IMG/VR virus record: IMGVR_UViG_2531839433_000004
Origin: a virus
Lineage: Duplodnaviria; Heunggongvirae; Uroviricota; Caudoviricetes
Length of the DNA: 23,310 bases
Strand: one strand, 5' to 3'
Part shown: piece after piece, positions 8,782 to 23,310 of the stretch
How positions within the stretch are numbered: the stretch's first letter is position 1
Layout: each line of letters begins with the position of its first letter
The notes under the pieces: model-generated
What the model was told of the DNA's origin: nothing
Database searches by the model: none
What the model saw: only the letters and a program-made list of their open reading frames with translations
Made by a program: the position numbers and the translations under genes

Positions 8782-9711
8782 ATGGCAAACACTGCTGAGA
8801 TATTCAATTTTCCTGTGCCGGATGTGGCACAAAAGGAGCCGCGCGTGGCAGATCTCGATGATGGTTATACGCGCATTGCAAATGAGTTGCTGGAAGCTGT
8901 GATGCTGGCCGGATTAACACAGCACCAGCTTCTGGTCTTCCTGGCTGTCATGCGCAAAACATATGGCTTTAATAAAAAACTGGATTGGGTGAGCAACGAG
9001 CAACTTTCCGAGTTGACCGGGATATTGCCGCACAAGTGTTCTGCTGCAAAAAGTGTTCTGGTAAAGCGTGGGATTTTTATTCAGAGCGGGCGGAATATCG
9101 GCATTAATAATGTGATCAGTGAATGGTCAACATTACCCGAATCAGGTAAGAAAAATAAAGTTTACCTGAAAGAGGTAAATTTACCTGAATCAGGTAAGAA
9201 AAGTTTACCCAAATCAGGTAAAGGCGTTTACCCGAATCAGGTAAACACAAAAGACAAACTAACAAAAGACAATATAAAACCTTTTTCGTCCGAGAATTCT
9301 GGCGAATCCTCTGACCAGCCAGAAAACGATCTTCCTGTGGTGAAACCGGATGCTGCAATTCAGAGCGGCAGCAAGTGGGGGACAGCAGAAGACCTGACCG
9401 CCGCAGAGTGGATGTTTGACATGGTGAAGACCATCGCGCCATCAGCCAGAAAACCGAATTTTGCAGGGTGGGCTAACGATATCCGCCTGATGCGTGAACG
9501 TGACGGACGTAACCACCGCGACATGTGCGTGCTGTTCCGCTGGGCATGCCAGGACAACTTCTGGTCCGGTAACGTGCTAAGTCCGGCCAAACTCCGCGAC
9601 AAGTGGACCCAACTCGAAATCAACCGTAACAAGCAACAGGCTGGCGTGACAGCCGGAAAATCAAAACTCGACCTGACAAACACTGACTGGATTTATGGGG
9701 TGGATTTATGA
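8782..9711 (+). CDS. O: Replication initiator O-like protein with the origin iterons inside its coding sequence
   Basis: MANTAEIFNFPVPDVAQKEPRVADLDDGYTRIANELLEAV...RKTYGFNK...ISEW parallels the lambda O N-terminus. GGAGGA RBS before the ATG at 8782. The ORF overlaps the P start. Confidence 0.8.
   Translation: MANTAEIFNFPVPDVAQKEPRVADLDDGYTRIANELLEAVMLAGLTQHQLLVFLAVMRKTYGFNKKLDWVSNEQLSELTGILPHKCSAAKSVLVKRGIFIQSGRNIGINNVISEWSTLPESGKKNKVYLKEVNLPESGKKSLPKSGKGVYPNQVNTKDKLTKDNIKPFSSENSGESSDQPENDLPVVKPDAAIQSGSKWGTAEDLTAAEWMFDMVKTIAPSARKPNFAGWANDIRLMRERDGRNHRDMCVLFRWACQDNFWSGNVLSPAKLRDKWTQLEINRNKQQAGVTAGKSKLDLTNTDWIYGVDL
9134..9246. repeat. Replication origin iterons: five direct repeats of ~18-20 bp, followed by an A/T-rich segment (9247..9290)
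   Basis: TTACCCGAATCAGGTAAG; TTTACCTGAAAGAGGTAAA; TTACCTGAATCAGGTAAG; TTTACCCAAATCAGGTAAAG; TTTACCCGAATCAGGTAAAC. Each has internal dyad symmetry (TTACC...GGTAA), as in lambda ori. Confidence 0.7.
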
Positions 9712-10394
9712 AAAACATCGCTGCACAGATGATTAACTTTGACCGTGAGCAGATGCGTCGAATCGCCAACAACATGCCGGAACAATACGACGAAAAGCCG
9801 CAGGTGCAGCAGGTGGCGCAGATCATCAACGGTGTGTTCAGCCAGTTACTGGCAACTTTCCCGGCGAGCCTGGCTAACCGCAACCAGAATGAGCTGAACG
9901 AAATCCGCCGTCAGTGGGTTATGGCTTTCCGTGAAAATGGAATTACCACTATGGAGCAGGTTAACGCCGGAATGCGCGTGGCCCGCCGACAGGAGCGACC
10001 ATTCCTGCCGTCGCCCGGCCAGTTCGTAGCGTGGTGTAAGCAGAGTGGCGGGGCGTTAGGTATCACTGTTGACCAAGTCATAACCGAATACTGGGATTGG
10101 CGTAATCGTTCCTTCGAATTCACTTCCAGCGAGCATTTCCCGTGGTCACAGCCTGTCATGTACCACATCTGCGTCGAACTGCGCCACCGTAGCATTGAGC
10201 GCCAGTTAACGCATGGCGAGCTGGCATGCGAGGCTGGTGACCTGCTGGACATGTGGGAGAAGCGCGTCAGTGAGGGCAAACCAATCCCTCCGGTCAGAAA
10301 ACAAATCTCGGCTCCGCGCCACGTGCCCGGGCCGACTCCCGCTCAGCTTTTGCTTGAGCAATACAAAGCGCGTAAAGCAGTCGGATTTATTTAA
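9708..10394 (+). CDS. P: Replication protein P-like helicase loader (lambda-like N-terminus, divergent C-terminus)
   Basis: The first ~110 aa (MKNIAAQMINFDREQMRRIANNMPEQYDEKPQVQQVAQIINGVFSQLLATFPASLANR...) are near-identical to lambda P as recalled. The remainder diverges. Confidence 0.85.
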   Translation: MKNIAAQMINFDREQMRRIANNMPEQYDEKPQVQQVAQIINGVFSQLLATFPASLANRNQNELNEIRRQWVMAFRENGITTMEQVNAGMRVARRQERPFLPSPGQFVAWCKQSGGALGITVDQVITEYWDWRNRSFEFTSSEHFPWSQPVMYHICVELRHRSIERQLTHGELACEAGDLLDMWEKRVSEGKPIPPVRKQISAPRHVPGPTPAQLLLEQYKARKAVGFI

Positions 10395-10396
10395 CC

Positions 10397-10981
10397 ATGA
10401 ACAAGAAATACACGTTGATCTAAGCGGATCCGCCCTGGACGTACGAGGATAAATGCAATTCTGGTAAGCGTGGCACCGGGCATAAATACTTGGTTATGAC
10501 GGTGCAGGATATCTGCTGGCTGCCAGTAAGGGAGCGGGTTGCAGAAAGCTGCCAGCTGGCGATGTGGTGGTTGCCAACTCAAACGTTCGAGGCGATGAAA
10601 GTCGTCGATGCCTGGGGATTTCGCCTGATCACAATGAAAGGTTTCACTTGGGATAAAACCTACCCGAAGCAAACTGACAAATCGGCGATGGGAATGGGAC
10701 ACCTGATCCGGGCGAACCGTGAAGATTGTCTTTTCGCGGTAAAGGGTAAGCGGGCACCACAGCAGGACGCCTCGATCATCCAGCACTACACCTCGCCGCG
10801 ACATGAGCACTCACGTAAACCAGACTGCGTGCGTGAAATGCTGGTTCGGTTGCTGGGTAATCTTCCACGTATTGAGCTCTTTGCGCGTAAATCCTCCCAC
10901 GGTTTCGACGTATGGGGAAACAAGTGTGATTCGCCAACCGTATCATTAAGCCCGGCCCGAGTTACTGATGTTTATTCTTAA
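10397..10981 (+). pseudogene. MT-A70-family DNA N6-adenine methyltransferase interrupted by an in-frame TAA at codon 9
   Basis: ATG AAC AAG AAA TAC ACG TTG ATC TAA GCG GAT CCG CCC TGG reads MNKKYTLI*ADPPW. The catalytic DPPW motif follows the stop in frame. The downstream frame continues ...AWGF...RANREDCLFAVKGKR...SPRHEHSRKPDCVREMLVRLLGNLPRIELFARKSSHGFDVWGNK. Confidence 0.7.
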
Positions 10982-17480: not shown

Positions 17481-17840
17481 TAGTTTTGTGATATGCCGCA
17501 GAAACGTTATATGCAATAACGTGCTGCGGTTGGCTGATGTACTTTCGAGAGTGTATTGAATAATTTCCAACCGTCATTAATTTTATTTATTTTTTGTATG
17601 AGAGGATTTGAACCTCCGAGCCTCGACACCTTATGACAACGCGATATTGCCTTGATGACCGCCATGTGCCAAAATAACCAATTGATAAATAAGTTGATTT
17701 TAATTGGTTGGAAGCAAGTCAGGTCAAATTCAGCATTCCGCTCTCTGTATCGGATAGTTAAATTTTTCTATAACTGATAGTAATATGTTAAAACTCACAC
17801 AGATAAATTATCATTGCTCAACAAGTATAATGGAGTTCCC

Positions 17841-19796
17841 GTGGATACAGCAGAACATGATGGCAAGTTTGCTTGGGCTAGTTTTTATGAGGCTTTTGCC
17901 AACGCGTTACTGACTTGGCGAAATCGTAGAGATGAATTAGTCAAAGGTATTCATCTAATTGCCTCGGGTGTGGAAGGAATGTCCCATCTGCAGGACAAAT
18001 CTATTATGGGAGAGATCTTTCCCTTAAAAGACATTTGTCCGTTTACTACTATGGGCTTGTTCAATCGTAACTTGACCGACAGCAATCGCAAAATTATTGC
18101 TGCCAAGCTAGCGAATTTGTTGGGCGTGAACGAACCGATTCCTGACTCCTTTGCCGGAATCCCTCTGTTGAATAACCAAAAATCTTGGTTCTTTGGTTAT
18201 GAAAAGTCACGCGACCCTAATGACATTGAATGCTTGTGGGAAATGTTCTCACAGGCAATGACCTTTGCGGATAACCAGAATACTAACTCTGCAGACTTCA
18301 CTGCCGCATATGACATCGCTTCTACAGTAATGAATGTCGGTTGGAATCTCACCATGGGGTTGTACTGGACCCGTCCTTGGTTCTACCCCACTTTAGATAG
18401 CCAGTCGCAGTATTACATTCAGACAGTGTTAAACATTAAGATCATTAAAAACGGGGCAAAAGGTCGCTGTAGTGGACAAAGTTACCTGAGTCTTATGCGG
18501 GCGCTGAACGAGGTCTTTACCCAACCAAACTATCCGGTTCATTCTTTCCCAGAACTTTCCTTATCAGCGTGGAATACAGATCTTAGCCAGTCTAAAGATG
18601 AGGTGGCAAATAGAACGTGGAAAGCCTCTTTACTGAATAAAATTAAGGCGTTATGCCTGAAAAAAAATGGCCCTTATTTCACTGCTTCGGAGTTGGAAGA
18701 AAACTACTTGGACGTTTTCAAGGTAGAGCATCCTGAGAGCAAAACTGTTACAAGCTCAATCTACTTTTATCTACAGAAACTATGCAATGATGATGAGTTA
18801 AAGTCCCTCGAGTCCGGAAATTATGAATACCTGAATTTTGAGAAAAACGAATCCCAGACGATAACTGAGGAAACTGTCGAAGAGAGTGCGCTGTCGCCAA
18901 AACTCACCCACGTTCCTTATGATATCAGTCATCTGGTGCAGGATGGCTGTTTCTTGGAAGAGGCTAAGATCCAACTCACACTTCAGCGCCTGATCGACAA
19001 GAAAAACCTGATATTACAAGGACCACCCGGAACTGGAAAAACTTGGTTAGCGCGACGTCTGGCGTACTGCTTGATGGGAGAAAAAGCACCTGAGCGTATT
19101 AGCGCGGTGCAATTTCACCCGAACCTCTCTTACGAAGACTTTATTCGCGGCTGGCGTCCAGGTAAAGAAGGGCAATTGACGCTAATTGATGGACCTTTTG
19201 TAAATGCAATCAAAACTGCAGTCAATAATCCTACCTCGAAATATGTGGTGATAATTGAAGAGATTAATCGTGGCAATCCGGCGCAAATCTTCGGTGAAAC
19301 ACTCACGTTGATGGAAGCAGATAAACGCACGCCGACTGAGGCATTATCTCTTTCCTATCCTAAAAATGCTGATGAAAAAATATACATTCCTGAGAATCTA
19401 TATATCATCGGTACGATGAATATTGCAGACCGCTCACTCGCACTACTTGACCTAGCGCTGCGCCGTCGTTTCGCGTTTATCGATCTAAAGCCAGCTTTTA
19501 ATGACGCGTGGAGAAACTGGGTAAATTATAATTACGCAATTGATTTTGACATGTTAGCATTCATCAAATCTCGACTGACGGTATTAAACGATATGCTGGC
19601 AAAAGATGTTACCTTAGGACCACAGTTTTGTATCGGTCACAGCTATGTCACCCCAGCTATCGGCCAAAAAATCAACGATGCCCAGGCTTGGTATGAACAA
19701 GTCGTTGATACAGAGATCTGCCCTTTGCTCGCCGAATATTGGTTCGATGCTCCAAATAAAGTCGATGAAGCCAGAAAAGTGTTATTAGCAAAATGA
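17841..19796 (+). CDS. mcrB: McrB-like AAA+ GTPase with a ~390-aa unrecognised N-terminal domain
   Basis: C-terminal half carries Walker A LILQGPPGTGKTW, VVIIEEINRGNPAQIFGE, and IIGTMNIADRSLALLDLALRRRFAFIDL, as in E. coli McrB. GTG start at 17841 with GGAG 5 nt upstream; the ORF track opens at a TTG at 17814. Confidence 0.85.
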   Translation: MDTAEHDGKFAWASFYEAFANALLTWRNRRDELVKGIHLIASGVEGMSHLQDKSIMGEIFPLKDICPFTTMGLFNRNLTDSNRKIIAAKLANLLGVNEPIPDSFAGIPLLNNQKSWFFGYEKSRDPNDIECLWEMFSQAMTFADNQNTNSADFTAAYDIASTVMNVGWNLTMGLYWTRPWFYPTLDSQSQYYIQTVLNIKIIKNGAKGRCSGQSYLSLMRALNEVFTQPNYPVHSFPELSLSAWNTDLSQSKDEVANRTWKASLLNKIKALCLKKNGPYFTASELEENYLDVFKVEHPESKTVTSSIYFYLQKLCNDDELKSLESGNYEYLNFEKNESQTITEETVEESALSPKLTHVPYDISHLVQDGCFLEEAKIQLTLQRLIDKKNLILQGPPGTGKTWLARRLAYCLMGEKAPERISAVQFHPNLSYEDFIRGWRPGKEGQLTLIDGPFVNAIKTAVNNPTSKYVVIIEEINRGNPAQIFGETLTLMEADKRTPTEALSLSYPKNADEKIYIPENLYIIGTMNIADRSLALLDLALRRRFAFIDLKPAFNDAWRNWVNYNYAIDFDMLAFIKSRLTVLNDMLAKDVTLGPQFCIGHSYVTPAIGQKINDAQAWYEQVVDTEICPLLAEYWFDAPNKVDEARKVLLAK

Positions 19797-20914
19797 CGAC
19801 AATAACCGGGAGTGAGCAACATACAGCATCACGTATTCCCATGCGAAATATCTGGATGCTGATGCTGTACGCTTCAGATCTGTTTCGCCAGTTAGGGCGC
19901 AATCAGATCGCAGTAGAAGATAACCCAGCAGAAATCCCCGACCTGGTGGCGACAATCCTCCTTCATGAGATTACGCTGCGCCGACGTCGCAATTTAAATA
20001 TGGGATACCAAACTTGTCATGCGGCCCTGAACCGGGTGAGAGGGCGCATTGACATACTGTATACTGCCAGTCATCAACTGCTGGAACGGGGACAGGTTGC
20101 CTGCCATTTTCAAGACATAACCCTCAACACCCCCCGAAATCGCTATGTTCGCTGTGCGTTAGAACGTCTGGCCTCAATCATAGTGAAACCGTCTTTGGCG
20201 GCAGATTGCCATTTTATGGCAATATCACTTCGCCGTGAGGGGATAAATGGAGGATATCCTGCCCCCCACGAATTACCCTCAGTGTGGCGTTTTGGACGCC
20301 ATGATGCCGCAGATAAACCGATGGTCGATGCCGCACGATTAGCTTTTGAACTGCTGATGCCGACCGAAGATCAAGGCCAATATCTTTTACCTGCGCCCTC
20401 AAATAACCTTTACTGGATGAGAAGACTATTTGAAAAAGGTATCGCTGGCTTATATCGTGTACACCTTGACAAAACAACTTGGCAGGTCTCTGCAGGGAAA
20501 GAGCTGAAATGGGCGTTGAGCGATCAAAGTGCAGGTAGTGCAGAGATTTTCCCGACAATGAAGTCAGACATTATTCTGGAACACAAGACTGCCCAGCGGC
20601 GTATTATTATCGATACCAAATTTAATTCGATTCTGACAAAGGGTTGGCATCGGGAGCAATCACTACGTAATGGCTATATTTATCAGCTATATACCTACCT
20701 TAGAACACAGGAGAACAAGACGGATCCGCTTTCGCTCAATGCCGCTGGTCTTCTACTTCATCCAGCTGTTGGCTATATGCTTAATGAGTATGTTGTCACT
20801 CAGGGACATAAGATCCATTTTGCTACAGTAGATATGACGGTAGATGCTAAAGCAATTAAAAAACAATTGCTGGCAATAGCCCATGATTGTGCAGGAGTCG
20901 CGGTTGATGACTAA
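19793..20914 (+). CDS. mcrC: McrC-like PD-(D/E)xK nuclease subunit
   Basis: Start overlaps the mcrB-like stop (ATGA, translational coupling). The segment RRIIIDTKFNSIL...YIYQLYTYL is consistent with the McrC nuclease core. Confidence 0.8.
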   Translation: MTTITGSEQHTASRIPMRNIWMLMLYASDLFRQLGRNQIAVEDNPAEIPDLVATILLHEITLRRRRNLNMGYQTCHAALNRVRGRIDILYTASHQLLERGQVACHFQDITLNTPRNRYVRCALERLASIIVKPSLAADCHFMAISLRREGINGGYPAPHELPSVWRFGRHDAADKPMVDAARLAFELLMPTEDQGQYLLPAPSNNLYWMRRLFEKGIAGLYRVHLDKTTWQVSAGKELKWALSDQSAGSAEIFPTMKSDIILEHKTAQRRIIIDTKFNSILTKGWHREQSLRNGYIYQLYTYLRTQENKTDPLSLNAAGLLLHPAVGYMLNEYVVTQGHKIHFATVDMTVDAKAIKKQLLAIAHDCAGVAVDD

Positions 20915-21614
20915 CCATCCTATAGGGCACTGGCTGTAATATAATCAATAGTTTCAATTAAGTAGCTGTTATCCGTGCTTAGTCATCATATGACGCACCA
21001 CGGTCTAATTTTCCTGCTCATACATTGATATATCCTTGTCGTGCCCGGAAAGTCGCAGTCCACTATGAGGTATACCGATTGCCAGCACCAAAAGCTTCTT
21101 TGTGATTATTATATCGGGGAATGCCTATTTTTTTAGTGACAATATCAGATAGCAATTAATAAGCGGTGCCGGTAATGGATGTTATGTTTAATGTATAGAC
21201 ACAGCCATCATAAACTAAACGTCTGTTGTTCGCTCATAACCGACATTTATCTCAGTTATGGAGGATAATTATGTATGCAGATAATGGGGCAGACAGTCGT
21301 GGAGTAAACAAGGTTTTGCACTGCTTGGCGGCATCGTTATCTTATTTTTAATTATGTGCCTCTTAACATAAGTTGGGACAAAACAGAGACACATAAGGTC
21401 TCACAAAGGTCTGCAAGGCCTCACATGTATTGAGATGTTAATAAAATGTAGACTTGTAATTTGGATATAAATGGTAGAGAAAACCTTTCCCCAAAATAAA
21501 AACGAACGTCAATGAAATCAAACGGTTGAATAAAGTTAATTTTGGCTAATAAAAAGACAATAAAATAATTTTTATCATTAAATATCAATGACTTGAATTC
21601 ATGGTTTTTATATA

Positions 21615-21779
21615 CTGCTGCGCCATATGGGTTGGACTGAAGCGGCTGACCTGATTGTTAAAGGTATGGAAGGCGCAATCAATGCCAAGACCGTAACTTA
21701 TGACTTCGAACGTCTGATGGAAGGCGCTAAGCTGCTGAAATGTTCAGAGTTTGGTGAAGCGATCATCGAAAACATGTAA
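21615..21779 (+). pseudogene. icdC: 165-bp 3' fragment of icd (isocitrate dehydrogenase), icdC-like, marking the prophage/host junction
   Basis: Translates to [54 protein letters not shown], the ICD C-terminus. Upstream sequence lacks icd homology. Confidence 0.85.
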
Positions 21780-21802
21780 TCTCTCCATGTGTTAAATATT
21801 GA

Positions 21803-21834
21803 AACGGGCGTATAACACGCCCGTTGTTTTATTT
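21803..21834 (+). terminator. icd intrinsic terminator
   Basis: AACGGGCGT-ataac-ACGCCCGTT followed by GTTTTATTT. Confidence 0.6.
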
Positions 21835-21881
21835 ATGTGGATATTATTAATAGCATATCGAGCATATTTATATGAAGCCCA

Positions 21882-22205
21882 TTACTTGAGCCCATATGGG
21901 CATATTTTTATAATGCAACTATTATGTAAACATTTATTTGTTATTTTGCTTTCTCCTGGAGGACACTCTTGACTGCTTTTGAGTAAACTCCATAAATCCT
22001 TGTTGAATGGTGCGATGTGATAAATAGTAATAGGATATTCTTTATCCTTAAGGATAATACCAGACTTAACCGGTGTAAATATACTGCCAGGAGGGAGAAA
22101 TATAGTAGATTGATACCAGATGATCATTTTCATATTACCCCATATGGCTGAAAAAGATATACCACATGTAGGTTGAATTACCGTGTCAATTACTATCCAC
22201 TTCAT
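21882..22205 (-). CDS. iraM: Anti-adaptor protein IraM (RssB inhibitor)
   Basis: 107-aa [41 protein letters not shown]... matches E. coli IraM/YcgW as recalled. A/T-rich gene. Confidence 0.75.
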
Positions 22206-22645
22206 TTGTTATGTCTTATCCCACGGTATTTAATATGGTTCATTAGGATGTTTATTTCTTGATTTTGCATATGAGTATATTACCCCCCCCCTCAAAAAAA
22301 TAAATTAATTAAAATGATGGCTTATATAAAATAAAATTTAAAGCAAGGAATCTCAATGGATGTTAAACAAAATGAGATTTTGTGAAAGCAATAAATTATT
22401 GACTTCGTTTTAGATTTGTTTAGCTATAATGTTATACATTCAAATGACTGAACATCCTGTAATTAAAACATAGCCTTTATGCTACTTTGTGCCAATTTGC
22501 TAAACATTATGGTTGCCTTTTTATATAACGATAATAATGAATATAAGCATGACATGAGAATAAGGTTTCAATTTTTGAGTTATATAGGAATGATTTAACC
22601 TGTTCCTGGCTAAAATACATATAACCGGATGATGACTAAACCAAA

Positions 22646-22700
22646 ATACATGTGCGTTAAGTATTGAAACGGACGTGTGGCACGGCCGTTGTTTTTATAA
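22646..22700 (+). terminator. Degenerate second copy of the icd 3' end and terminator hairpin
   Basis: CATGTGCGTTAAGTATTGAAACGGACGTGTGGCACGGCCGTTGTTTTTAT aligns with CATGTGTTAAATATTGAAACGGGCGTATAACACGCCCGTTGTTTTAT at 21786..21832. Confidence 0.45.
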
Positions 22701-22905
22701 ATATGTTAACCGTTATAAAATAACGTATCAAAAGTCAAGTGATCACATTTCAAATATCAAGTTGATAGTATTAGTCTGGTGATTATTTATGGGTGACAAT
22801 AAAAAGACAGTATTAATCATCCATAGAGATAGTCTCTGCACTTTTATTTCCATTATGCTAATGCCTTACTGAATTATGAAGCATTTCTTAAGTATCCAAC
22901 TTTAG

Positions 22906-23310
22906 CTAGATTAATGGTTTATTATTTTCTACATCTTCAATATATAAAAGCGTATTATCAATGGCGTAGTAACTGCGTTTGTTATGATTAACATCAGTAA
23001 CCCACCGGAAAACGCCCGCGCCTGCCAGTGTTGAACAGTATTCCCGAAATGTAGATTTTCCGCAAATATGAAGCAATGCGGCCTCTTTTATTTTAGCAGG
23101 GTTCTTGGTCGTACTAACTTTTAACAGGTTCCTGGTTCCTCTTAATAACAAAACCGTATCATCGTGAGTAATAATTCTGATGTTATCCGTAGCCAGATAA
23201 TAAATGTAATGTGCAATACGGTGATGTTTTAATTCTGAATAAAACCAGGAGAAGTTTTGCTCTTTTCTCACTTGCTCAAACATCTTTTGAAAAACAACGA
23301 CCTGATCCAT
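22906..23310 (-). CDS. ycgX: YcgX (DUF1398-family) host protein
   Basis: 134-aa MDQVVVFQKMFEQVRKEQNFSWFYSELKHHRIAHYIYYLATDNIRI... matches E. coli YcgX as recalled. Start codon sits at the window edge. Confidence 0.75.
   Translation of the reverse strand: MDQVVVFQKMFEQVRKEQNFSWFYSELKHHRIAHYIYYLATDNIRIITHDDTVLLLRGTRNLLKVSTTKNPAKIKEAALLHICGKSTFREYCSTLAGAGVFRWVTDVNHNKRSYYAIDNTLLYIEDVENNKPLI

Follow-up and report, generated by a model that had tools for sequence, protein, structure and literature searches.

Two copies of the icd terminator bracket iraM in Escherichia coli, probably as the scar of an older phage integration

The icd–ycgX interval and its resident prophage

The window analyzed here, i.e., the whole stretch of 23,310 nucleotides, matches E. 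coli strain 67-1 at 100% identity and carries a degraded lambdoid prophage at icd, which still displays xis, exo/bet/gam, a repressor gene, O/P, fragments of lysis genes, and, at its right end, an McrBC-like pair. The prophage is delimited by a direct repeat composed of the 3′ fragment of icd (icd′) followed by the icd terminator. The attR-side copy occupies 217 nt of the plus strand (21616–21832), overlaps the icd′ pseudogene annotated at 21612–21779, and is 93% identical, over 217 ungapped nucleotides, to the attL copy located just upstream of the window start (L004 22084–22300). The integrase gene is split by an IS3-family element (window 1–2460; L004 22361–24816), so that the prophage is probably locked in place. 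Just inside attR (17814–20914), we observed an McrB-like AAA GTPase (ORF of 660 aa) together with McrC (373 aa), a restriction-type cargo pair whose position is the one taken by mcrA in e14.

All the genes found to the right of attR, namely iraM, ymgK, ymgL, and ycgX in this order, are carried on the minus strand. The iraM gene (21882–22205; NCBIfam NF007393, E = 2.5e-51; PHROG 4407, E = 4e-51) encodes the PhoPQ-induced anti-adaptor of RssB, which shields RpoS from RssB/ClpXP. Upstream of it, at about 260 nt and on the same strand, ymgK (annotated at 22463–22507) specifies a small protein of 14 aa (MFSKLAQSSIKAMF), followed by ymgL (annotated at 22743–22853; translation of 36 aa) and, as right-hand neighbour, by ycgX (DUF1398; 22906–23310; PHROG 413, E = 1.5e-41). 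The translations of ymgK and ymgL agree with small proteins described previously, and the ymgK product was detected in the same study (PMC6001520). From its position, ymgK could be the leader peptide of a Mg2+-responsive iraM transcript. In the window as in prophage-free genomes, iraM is located beyond the attR repeat, past a gap (21832–21882), and is therefore no part of the present prophage.

The terminator repeat around iraM

An initial annotation of this DNA had proposed that a diverged copy of the icd terminator recurs beyond iraM, at 22646–22700, and this was right within a few bases. Local alignment of 21560–21900 against 22450–22800 gave one significant match and only one, between 21786–21830 and 22649–22695, with a score of 53 (500 shuffles: mean 20.5, sd 2.6, maximum 32; reverse complement: 21). 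The first of these plus-strand sequences, T1, is the icd terminator, in which folding and a terminator scan identified a strong hairpin, nearly palindromic, with a T-run behind it; the second, T2, is a diverged direct copy of it, recovered by alignment, by repeat search, and by profile search. Once aligned (CATGTG--TTAAATATTGAAACGGGCGTATAACACGCCCGTTGTTTT for T1, CATGTGCGTTAAGTATTGAAACGGACGTGTGGCACGGCCGTTGTTTT for T2), both copies share 40 identities, with 5 mismatches and one 2-nt indel. This pair is the top-ranked direct repeat of the repeat search (43 nt, 84%, spacing 865), and a profile built from the copies recovers both sites (E = 3e-17 and 6.5e-16). The similarity spans the stem-loop, the T-run, and a 5′ flank, TTAA(A/G)TATTGAAAC, and the T2-type copies can be recognized by TTAAGTATTG and, further on, an ATGGC loop.

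The similarity is restricted to the terminator. Upstream of it, no homology above that of shuffles was detected between the icd coding fragment (21600–21785) and 22400–22648, and the right flanks of T1 and T2 gave no score above shuffles either. When the alignment was anchored on the terminator, 176–376 of 2,000 shuffles equalled or exceeded the score of icd′ upstream of the window T2, and no 5′ edge of icd′ was found near it. The profile search revealed no third, more distal copy in 12-kb loci reaching pdeG. The two copies delimit a module (interior 21831–22648) holding the A/T-rich iraM gene, as initially annotated. The G+C content of the module is 30% (0.302), against 0.448 for the window, and iraM and ymgK are the only genes that it contains here.

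We then asked where else this motif occurs. With a 77-nt query around T2 and a permissive threshold (E ≤ 10), the 5,426 complete E. coli genomes contain a median of 2 places per genome, with a maximum of 4, and every copy examined corresponds either to the icd locus or to a phage attP. Among 50,697 phage records, the motif is confined to phage 21 and about ten lambda-like phages, in which it is found after a 165-nt mimic of the icd 3′ end and before int; it is therefore part of attP. The attP of phages 21 and 4C10 carries the same terminator sequence as T1. The homology between phages and host, like the present attL, ends at ...CCGTTGTTTTA, which is the very nucleotide where the T1/T2 homology stops and where the chromosomes with and without iraM part. 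We found no phage record with a T2-type copy or with the flanks of the iraM module. A scan of 21000–23310 against Rfam at E ≤ 10 returned chance-level matches alone (e.g., SNORD72, L20_leader). A dispersed repeat of the REP/BIME type, which would have undermined the initial annotation, was rejected on these grounds, i.e., 2–4 places per genome and no Rfam family, all the phage copies lying in attP.

In addition, two mirror-image loops, GTATAACAC and GTGTTATAC, are encountered in the icd terminator, the stem being palindromic apart from them. The flipped form is carried by the attL copy (L004 22271–22293, to be compared with window 21803–21825) and by the single copy of strain E26 (L003 2188–2210), and the unflipped form by phages 21 and 4C10. 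These forms reflect either inversion of the hairpin or exchange with phage-borne copies. A few plasmid records in the E. coli genome set (8–24 places) also match the icd-iraM region; they may reflect misassignment of the replicons or the capture of chromosomal pieces by plasmids.

The two copies differ in their folding. The scan flagged T1 as terminator-like; its stem has 9 bp, and its folding energy reaches −18.6 kcal/mol on the plus strand (z = −3.6) and −17.3 kcal/mol on the minus strand (z = −4.3). The window T2 has an intact T-run, whereas its fold (−11.7 kcal/mol, z = −0.3) is not more stable than those of shuffled sequences. However, the copy described as degenerate in the initial annotation is so only in the lineage of the window. 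In lineages such as L044 and L049, T2 (GTTAAGTATTGAAACGGGCGTATGGCACGCCCGTTGTTTT) forms a perfect 8-bp stem and is identical to T1 at 37 of 40 positions; its stem contains one mismatch in the Shigella/FORC_028 lineage and, beyond this one, three further stem-disrupting substitutions in the window's lineage. The degeneracy of T2 is a trait of the latter, and the ancestral copy was an intact hairpin.

It had also been noticed that no plus-strand gene ends at T2. We found none either, but a point had been overlooked: along the minus strand, the stop codon of ymgL precedes T2 by 48 nt, so that the position of T2 is not unexplained. T2 has probably been kept as the putative terminator of the minus-strand ymgL-ycgX genes and is decaying in the window's lineage. 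A plus-strand small RNA ending at T2 was considered and discarded, with 15 promoter-like sites against 11.0 ± 3.7 in shuffles and no other support. T1, and T2 in the other lineages, resemble bidirectional intrinsic terminators, i.e., near-palindromic GC stems flanked by A/T runs, unlike the window T2 with its three stem-disrupting substitutions.

Distribution of the iraM module and an outgroup haplotype

The module (interior 21850–22640) is present in 3,941 of the 5,426 genomes, with 865 bp between the starts of T1 and T2. In 1,037 others, a single T1-like hairpin is joined straight to the right flank of T2, TATAAATATGTTAACCG. These single-terminator genomes include ATCC 25922 and DSM 30083T, both of phylogroup B2, and the four that were sampled share a common right-flank haplotype and a common ycgX allele. 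CFT073 is also devoid of iraM (PMC4045071). The comparison with prophage-free genomes was in agreement with the initial annotation: those carrying iraM retain both terminator copies around it (L001, L044, L045, L047, L048), and the repeat is therefore independent of the present prophage, while the iraM-less B2-type genomes contain exactly one. Between the alleles of the module, we measured 2–4.5% of differences in the iraM coding sequence and 3–8% upstream of it, compared to 5–9% in the neighbouring non-coding DNA. This similar level of divergence indicates that the module is an old resident of the locus.

A divergent lineage labelled E. coli (L060, L061, and the complete genome N96; 19 complete genomes), which we reached through YcgX variants of ~90% identity, presents a third organization. 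Over 2.35 kb of nudJ-rluE-icd, it diverges by 3.2–3.45% from each of four E. coli strains, whereas these four, the B2-like one included, differ mutually by 1.45–1.96%. Because of this difference, the lineage can be used as an outgroup at the icd locus, keeping in mind that the polarity is drawn from one outgroup haplotype and from these 2.35 kb of flanking genes, and that recombination at such a hotspot could mislead. A scan of contigs based on BluR did not deliver icd loci from E. albertii, E. fergusonii, or E. marmotae, and in other genera bluR lies away from icd.

In the outgroup, T1 and T2 are 6.3 kb apart. The order is icd, T1, an ORF of 455 aa, a transposase pseudogene, trkG, an iraM orthologue (72% at the amino acid level) and a ymgB/ariR-like gene, both on the minus strand, T2, the ymgL region, ycgX, and bluR. 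The trkG segment is ~90% identical to Rac-like prophages, the match beginning 74 nt inside the Rz-type lysis gene found ahead of trkG in these prophages, and TrkG itself matches PHROG 1916. No integrase was found in this island. More importantly, the sequence upstream of the outgroup T2, TGCAATACATGCTATCAAGAATATGTTAA, includes a perfect match to the final 13 nt of icd, ATCAAGAATATGT. This icd′ remnant extends over ~28 nt, and its score in the terminator-anchored alignment was reached by 2–6 of 2,000 shuffles. The outgroup T2, being preceded by the end of icd, is therefore probably the relic of a unit made of the icd end and its terminator, like the attR of an icd-integrating phage. Besides, the YmgB/AriR-family paralogue which adjoins iraM in these genomes (L060 11242–11496; L062 6966–7226) lies a few kb from the chromosomal ycgZ-ymgA-ariR genes, and this hints that this family of regulators also travels as phage cargo.

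The genes of the interval have relatives in phages. Homologues sharing 54–73% identity with IraM are encoded by lambdoid prophages of both E. coli and E. albertii, where they occupy the opposite strand in the stretch from the Q antiterminator gene to the holin/lysozyme genes. The iraM coding region is matched by 72 phage records and the rest of the module by none, the homology with phage-borne iraM DNA being limited to the coding region. Among the non-syntenic homologues of YcgX, the closest are products of lambdoid prophages, whose lysis and terminase genes flank the homologue; outside E. coli, the closest ones are found at a yedE-fli locus of Escherichia sp. and in an E. albertii prophage. 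As side observations, the IraM homologues of some Stx prophages adjoin the stx genes (RIP and SLT_beta domains), and a different prophage has one next to a gene of the LpxR family of lipid A deacylases (L032 3206–5105; L035 8001–9773). Homologues of this RpoS anti-adaptor thus appear to accompany virulence cargo commonly. In phages, ycgX is placed on the opposite strand right after the lysis genes, and its order relative to Rz′-trkG is similar in the outgroup (L041 6001–6405; L062 4015–8461). The ymgL-ycgX genes, which lie beyond T2, may derive from a still older prophage.

History of the icd 3′ flank

According to the initial annotation, iraM would be what survives of the cargo brought by an earlier integration at icd. 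We retain this proposal, to which we give a probability of roughly 0.65, because of the T1/T2 repeat, the outgroup island, the icd codons next to its T2, and the phage homologues of IraM; T2 would then be the remnant of a duplication of the icd 3′ end and terminator. An ancient lambdoid phage of the e14/phage-21 type would have integrated at icd, leaving T1 beside icd and T2 at the far end of the prophage. The duplication would result from the fact that such phages bring their own icd 3′ end and terminator, and one of the two copies would be the host original. The prophage would then have decayed, the outgroup keeping 6.3 kb of it (the 455-aa ORF, the transposase fragment, Rz′-trkG, iraM, and the ymgB-like gene), and further deletions would have reduced it to ~0.8 kb (iraM and ymgK) in most E. 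coli. In the B2-type lineage, T1 and T2 would have recombined within their common ACGCCCGTTGTTTT, an event that removed this remainder and left a single terminator. The iraM-less B2-type state is most likely such a secondary deletion between the repeats. Later phages, including the prophage of the window, would have reused the regenerated icd site, pushing the old scar outward. The later arrival of the current prophage had already been proposed in the initial annotation.

Several observations are less favourable to this scenario. No integrase, excisionase, or crossover core was found between or beside the copies. The two elements initially described as att-like remnants are so by being a repeat whose outer boundary is that of attP, but T2 is not a complete att site: it is devoid of the ~165-nt icd′ part with the crossover core. 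This part being almost lost from T2, a deletion must have stopped close to the terminator, an endpoint which would be favoured by selection for a ymgL-ycgX terminator. The order found in the outgroup island, Rz′-trkG then iraM, is also unlike that of an intact lambdoid genome, where the iraM homologues precede the lysis genes. Finally, since ycgX, beyond T2, belongs to a phage family too, more than one event is needed.

Three other explanations have to be weighed against an old integration. It could first be supposed that a resemblance of this extent is common to intrinsic terminators, or to REP-like palindromes, in general, both copies being GC-rich hairpins with T-runs and a short common stem. 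We rejected this idea, which we consider extremely improbable: the score is ~12 sd above shuffles and includes the flank lying outside the stem, the genomes contain so few copies (without a third one within 12 kb downstream), no Rfam family is recognized, and an orthologous T1/T2 pair is conserved in the outgroup. The single terminator of the B2-type genomes could also be the ancestral empty site, into which a small iraM element, or a prophage that decayed afterwards, would have entered after the B2 split, bringing a 45-nt terminator mimic which now serves ymgL-ycgX. Such a late insertion would account for the exactness of the empty site, for the iraM-less genomes forming one haplotype group, and for the T1-like hairpin that all of them carry, which fits with T1 being the original copy, and it makes a coincidental deletion endpoint unnecessary. 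On the contrary, the outgroup, which is equidistant from the B2-like and the other E. coli, possesses both copies and the iraM orthologue, the last icd codons at its T2 point to an integration inside icd and not in the terminator, and the module alleles, as diverged as the neighbouring non-coding DNA, imply an old module. We thus judge a late insertion unlikely.

The same low credence goes to a duplication of the terminator and a few bases beside it without any phage, by unequal crossing-over, replication slippage, or movement of a portable terminator cassette, with AT-rich foreign DNA gathering independently between the copies. In E. coli proper, the repeat indeed comprises the terminator only, the integrase and the core are absent, and both copies occupy places in which converging genes call for a terminator (T1 that of icd and iraM; T2 that of ymgL-ycgX). 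Nevertheless, the attP of the known icd-integrating phages contains this terminator, with an identical boundary on its right, the DNA from T1 to T2 belongs to phage families, the Rz′ fragment included, and icd codons remain upstream of the outgroup T2.

An older integration at icd would be in line with what is known of this site. Hill, Gray, and Brody reportedly described, in 1989, the icd/icdC duplication in connection with e14 and phage 21 integration, and the phage 21 att region is said to have been recorded by Wang et al. in 1997 (AF017626). The duplication of icd by e14 and phage 21, as well as the loss of the prophages through recombination between the copies, is established (PMC6379469, PMC13626634). 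The iraM scar shares with it a direct repeat derived from the icd 3′ end with its terminator and bracketing phage-derived DNA, an identical right boundary of homology (...CCGTTGTTTTA), and a single-copy state after loss of the intervening DNA; the window offers its own current example of this duplication, with 21616–21832 and attL. On the other hand, T2 is devoid of most of the ~165-nt icd′ and of the core, there is no int or xis, and the cargo is reduced to 0.8 kb (6.3 kb in the outgroup). T1 and T2 are older and more diverged, and a loss of the B2 type would use homologous or short-repeat recombination, not the integrase. The T1/T2 scar is an older example of the known kind of icd scar, and its mechanism is not new. 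Neither the pair of terminators flanking iraM, nor the larger island, nor the empty site delimited by the repeat was found described in the searchable literature.

The cargo itself can be compared to the morons of lambdoid phages, i.e., autonomous cargo genes such as bor, lom, or stx. Like them, iraM is AT-rich and belongs to a family (PHROG 4407) typically found as opposite-strand cargo between Q and the lysis genes; unlike them, it lies outside any present prophage and is fixed in most non-B2 E. coli. The iraL gene of the potB island of CFT073 provides a moron-type comparison (PMC4045071). In the same study, iraM was considered as horizontally acquired, present or absent among strains, and placed 'on e14' (PMC4045071). 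While the presence or absence of iraM among E. coli lineages was known, it was so far unexplained. The history proposed here would supply this explanation, and would account for one way in which lineages differ in their circuitry of the general stress response; it would also document the serial reuse of one phage attachment site at icd. The annotation of the e14/prophage boundary is corrected as well. More tentatively, the whole icd 3′ flank could be viewed as a stacked "prophage graveyard", in which every newly integrating phage displaces what is left of its predecessor outward and each relic is bounded by the icd terminator. E. coli would have domesticated regulators from these relics, i.e., iraM, the ymgB/ariR-like gene of the outgroup, and possibly ymgL-ycgX, with T1 and T2 still acting as a recombination switch that has removed iraM from B2. 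This broader picture is doubtful; if true, the locus would contribute to lineage differences in RpoS stability.

Insertion sequences are a further source of variation at these hairpins. IS200C inserts repeatedly directly behind the T-run, whether this belongs to T1, to T2, or to the lone terminator (L003 2215–2930; L049 1–540 and 1360–2090; L050 5295–6010; L051 5290–6005). The motif, as a short intergenic GC-rich palindrome that draws IS200-family insertions, is in this respect like REP/BIME elements, but unlike them it is not dispersed, with 2–4 copies per genome against the tens to hundreds that REP/BIME elements reach at unrelated intergenic sites. A transposable unit of the IS200/IS605 or MITE type was also considered for the module itself and rejected: it contains no transposase, and the ends of IS200C (L003, L049) are unlike T1 and T2. 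The locus L008 (CP178306.1) displays, at 9400–10660, iraM and icd′ in many pieces of low identity, which looks like an error-rich assembly and not like biology. In strain Z142-2, iraM lies between two IS200C copies of the same orientation, and the iraM-less strains E26 and GPEC464, which group with the iraM-carrying haplotypes, present one IS200C each. From these arrangements, a second route of iraM loss is suggested for E26 and GPEC464, which would proceed by recombination between IS copies.
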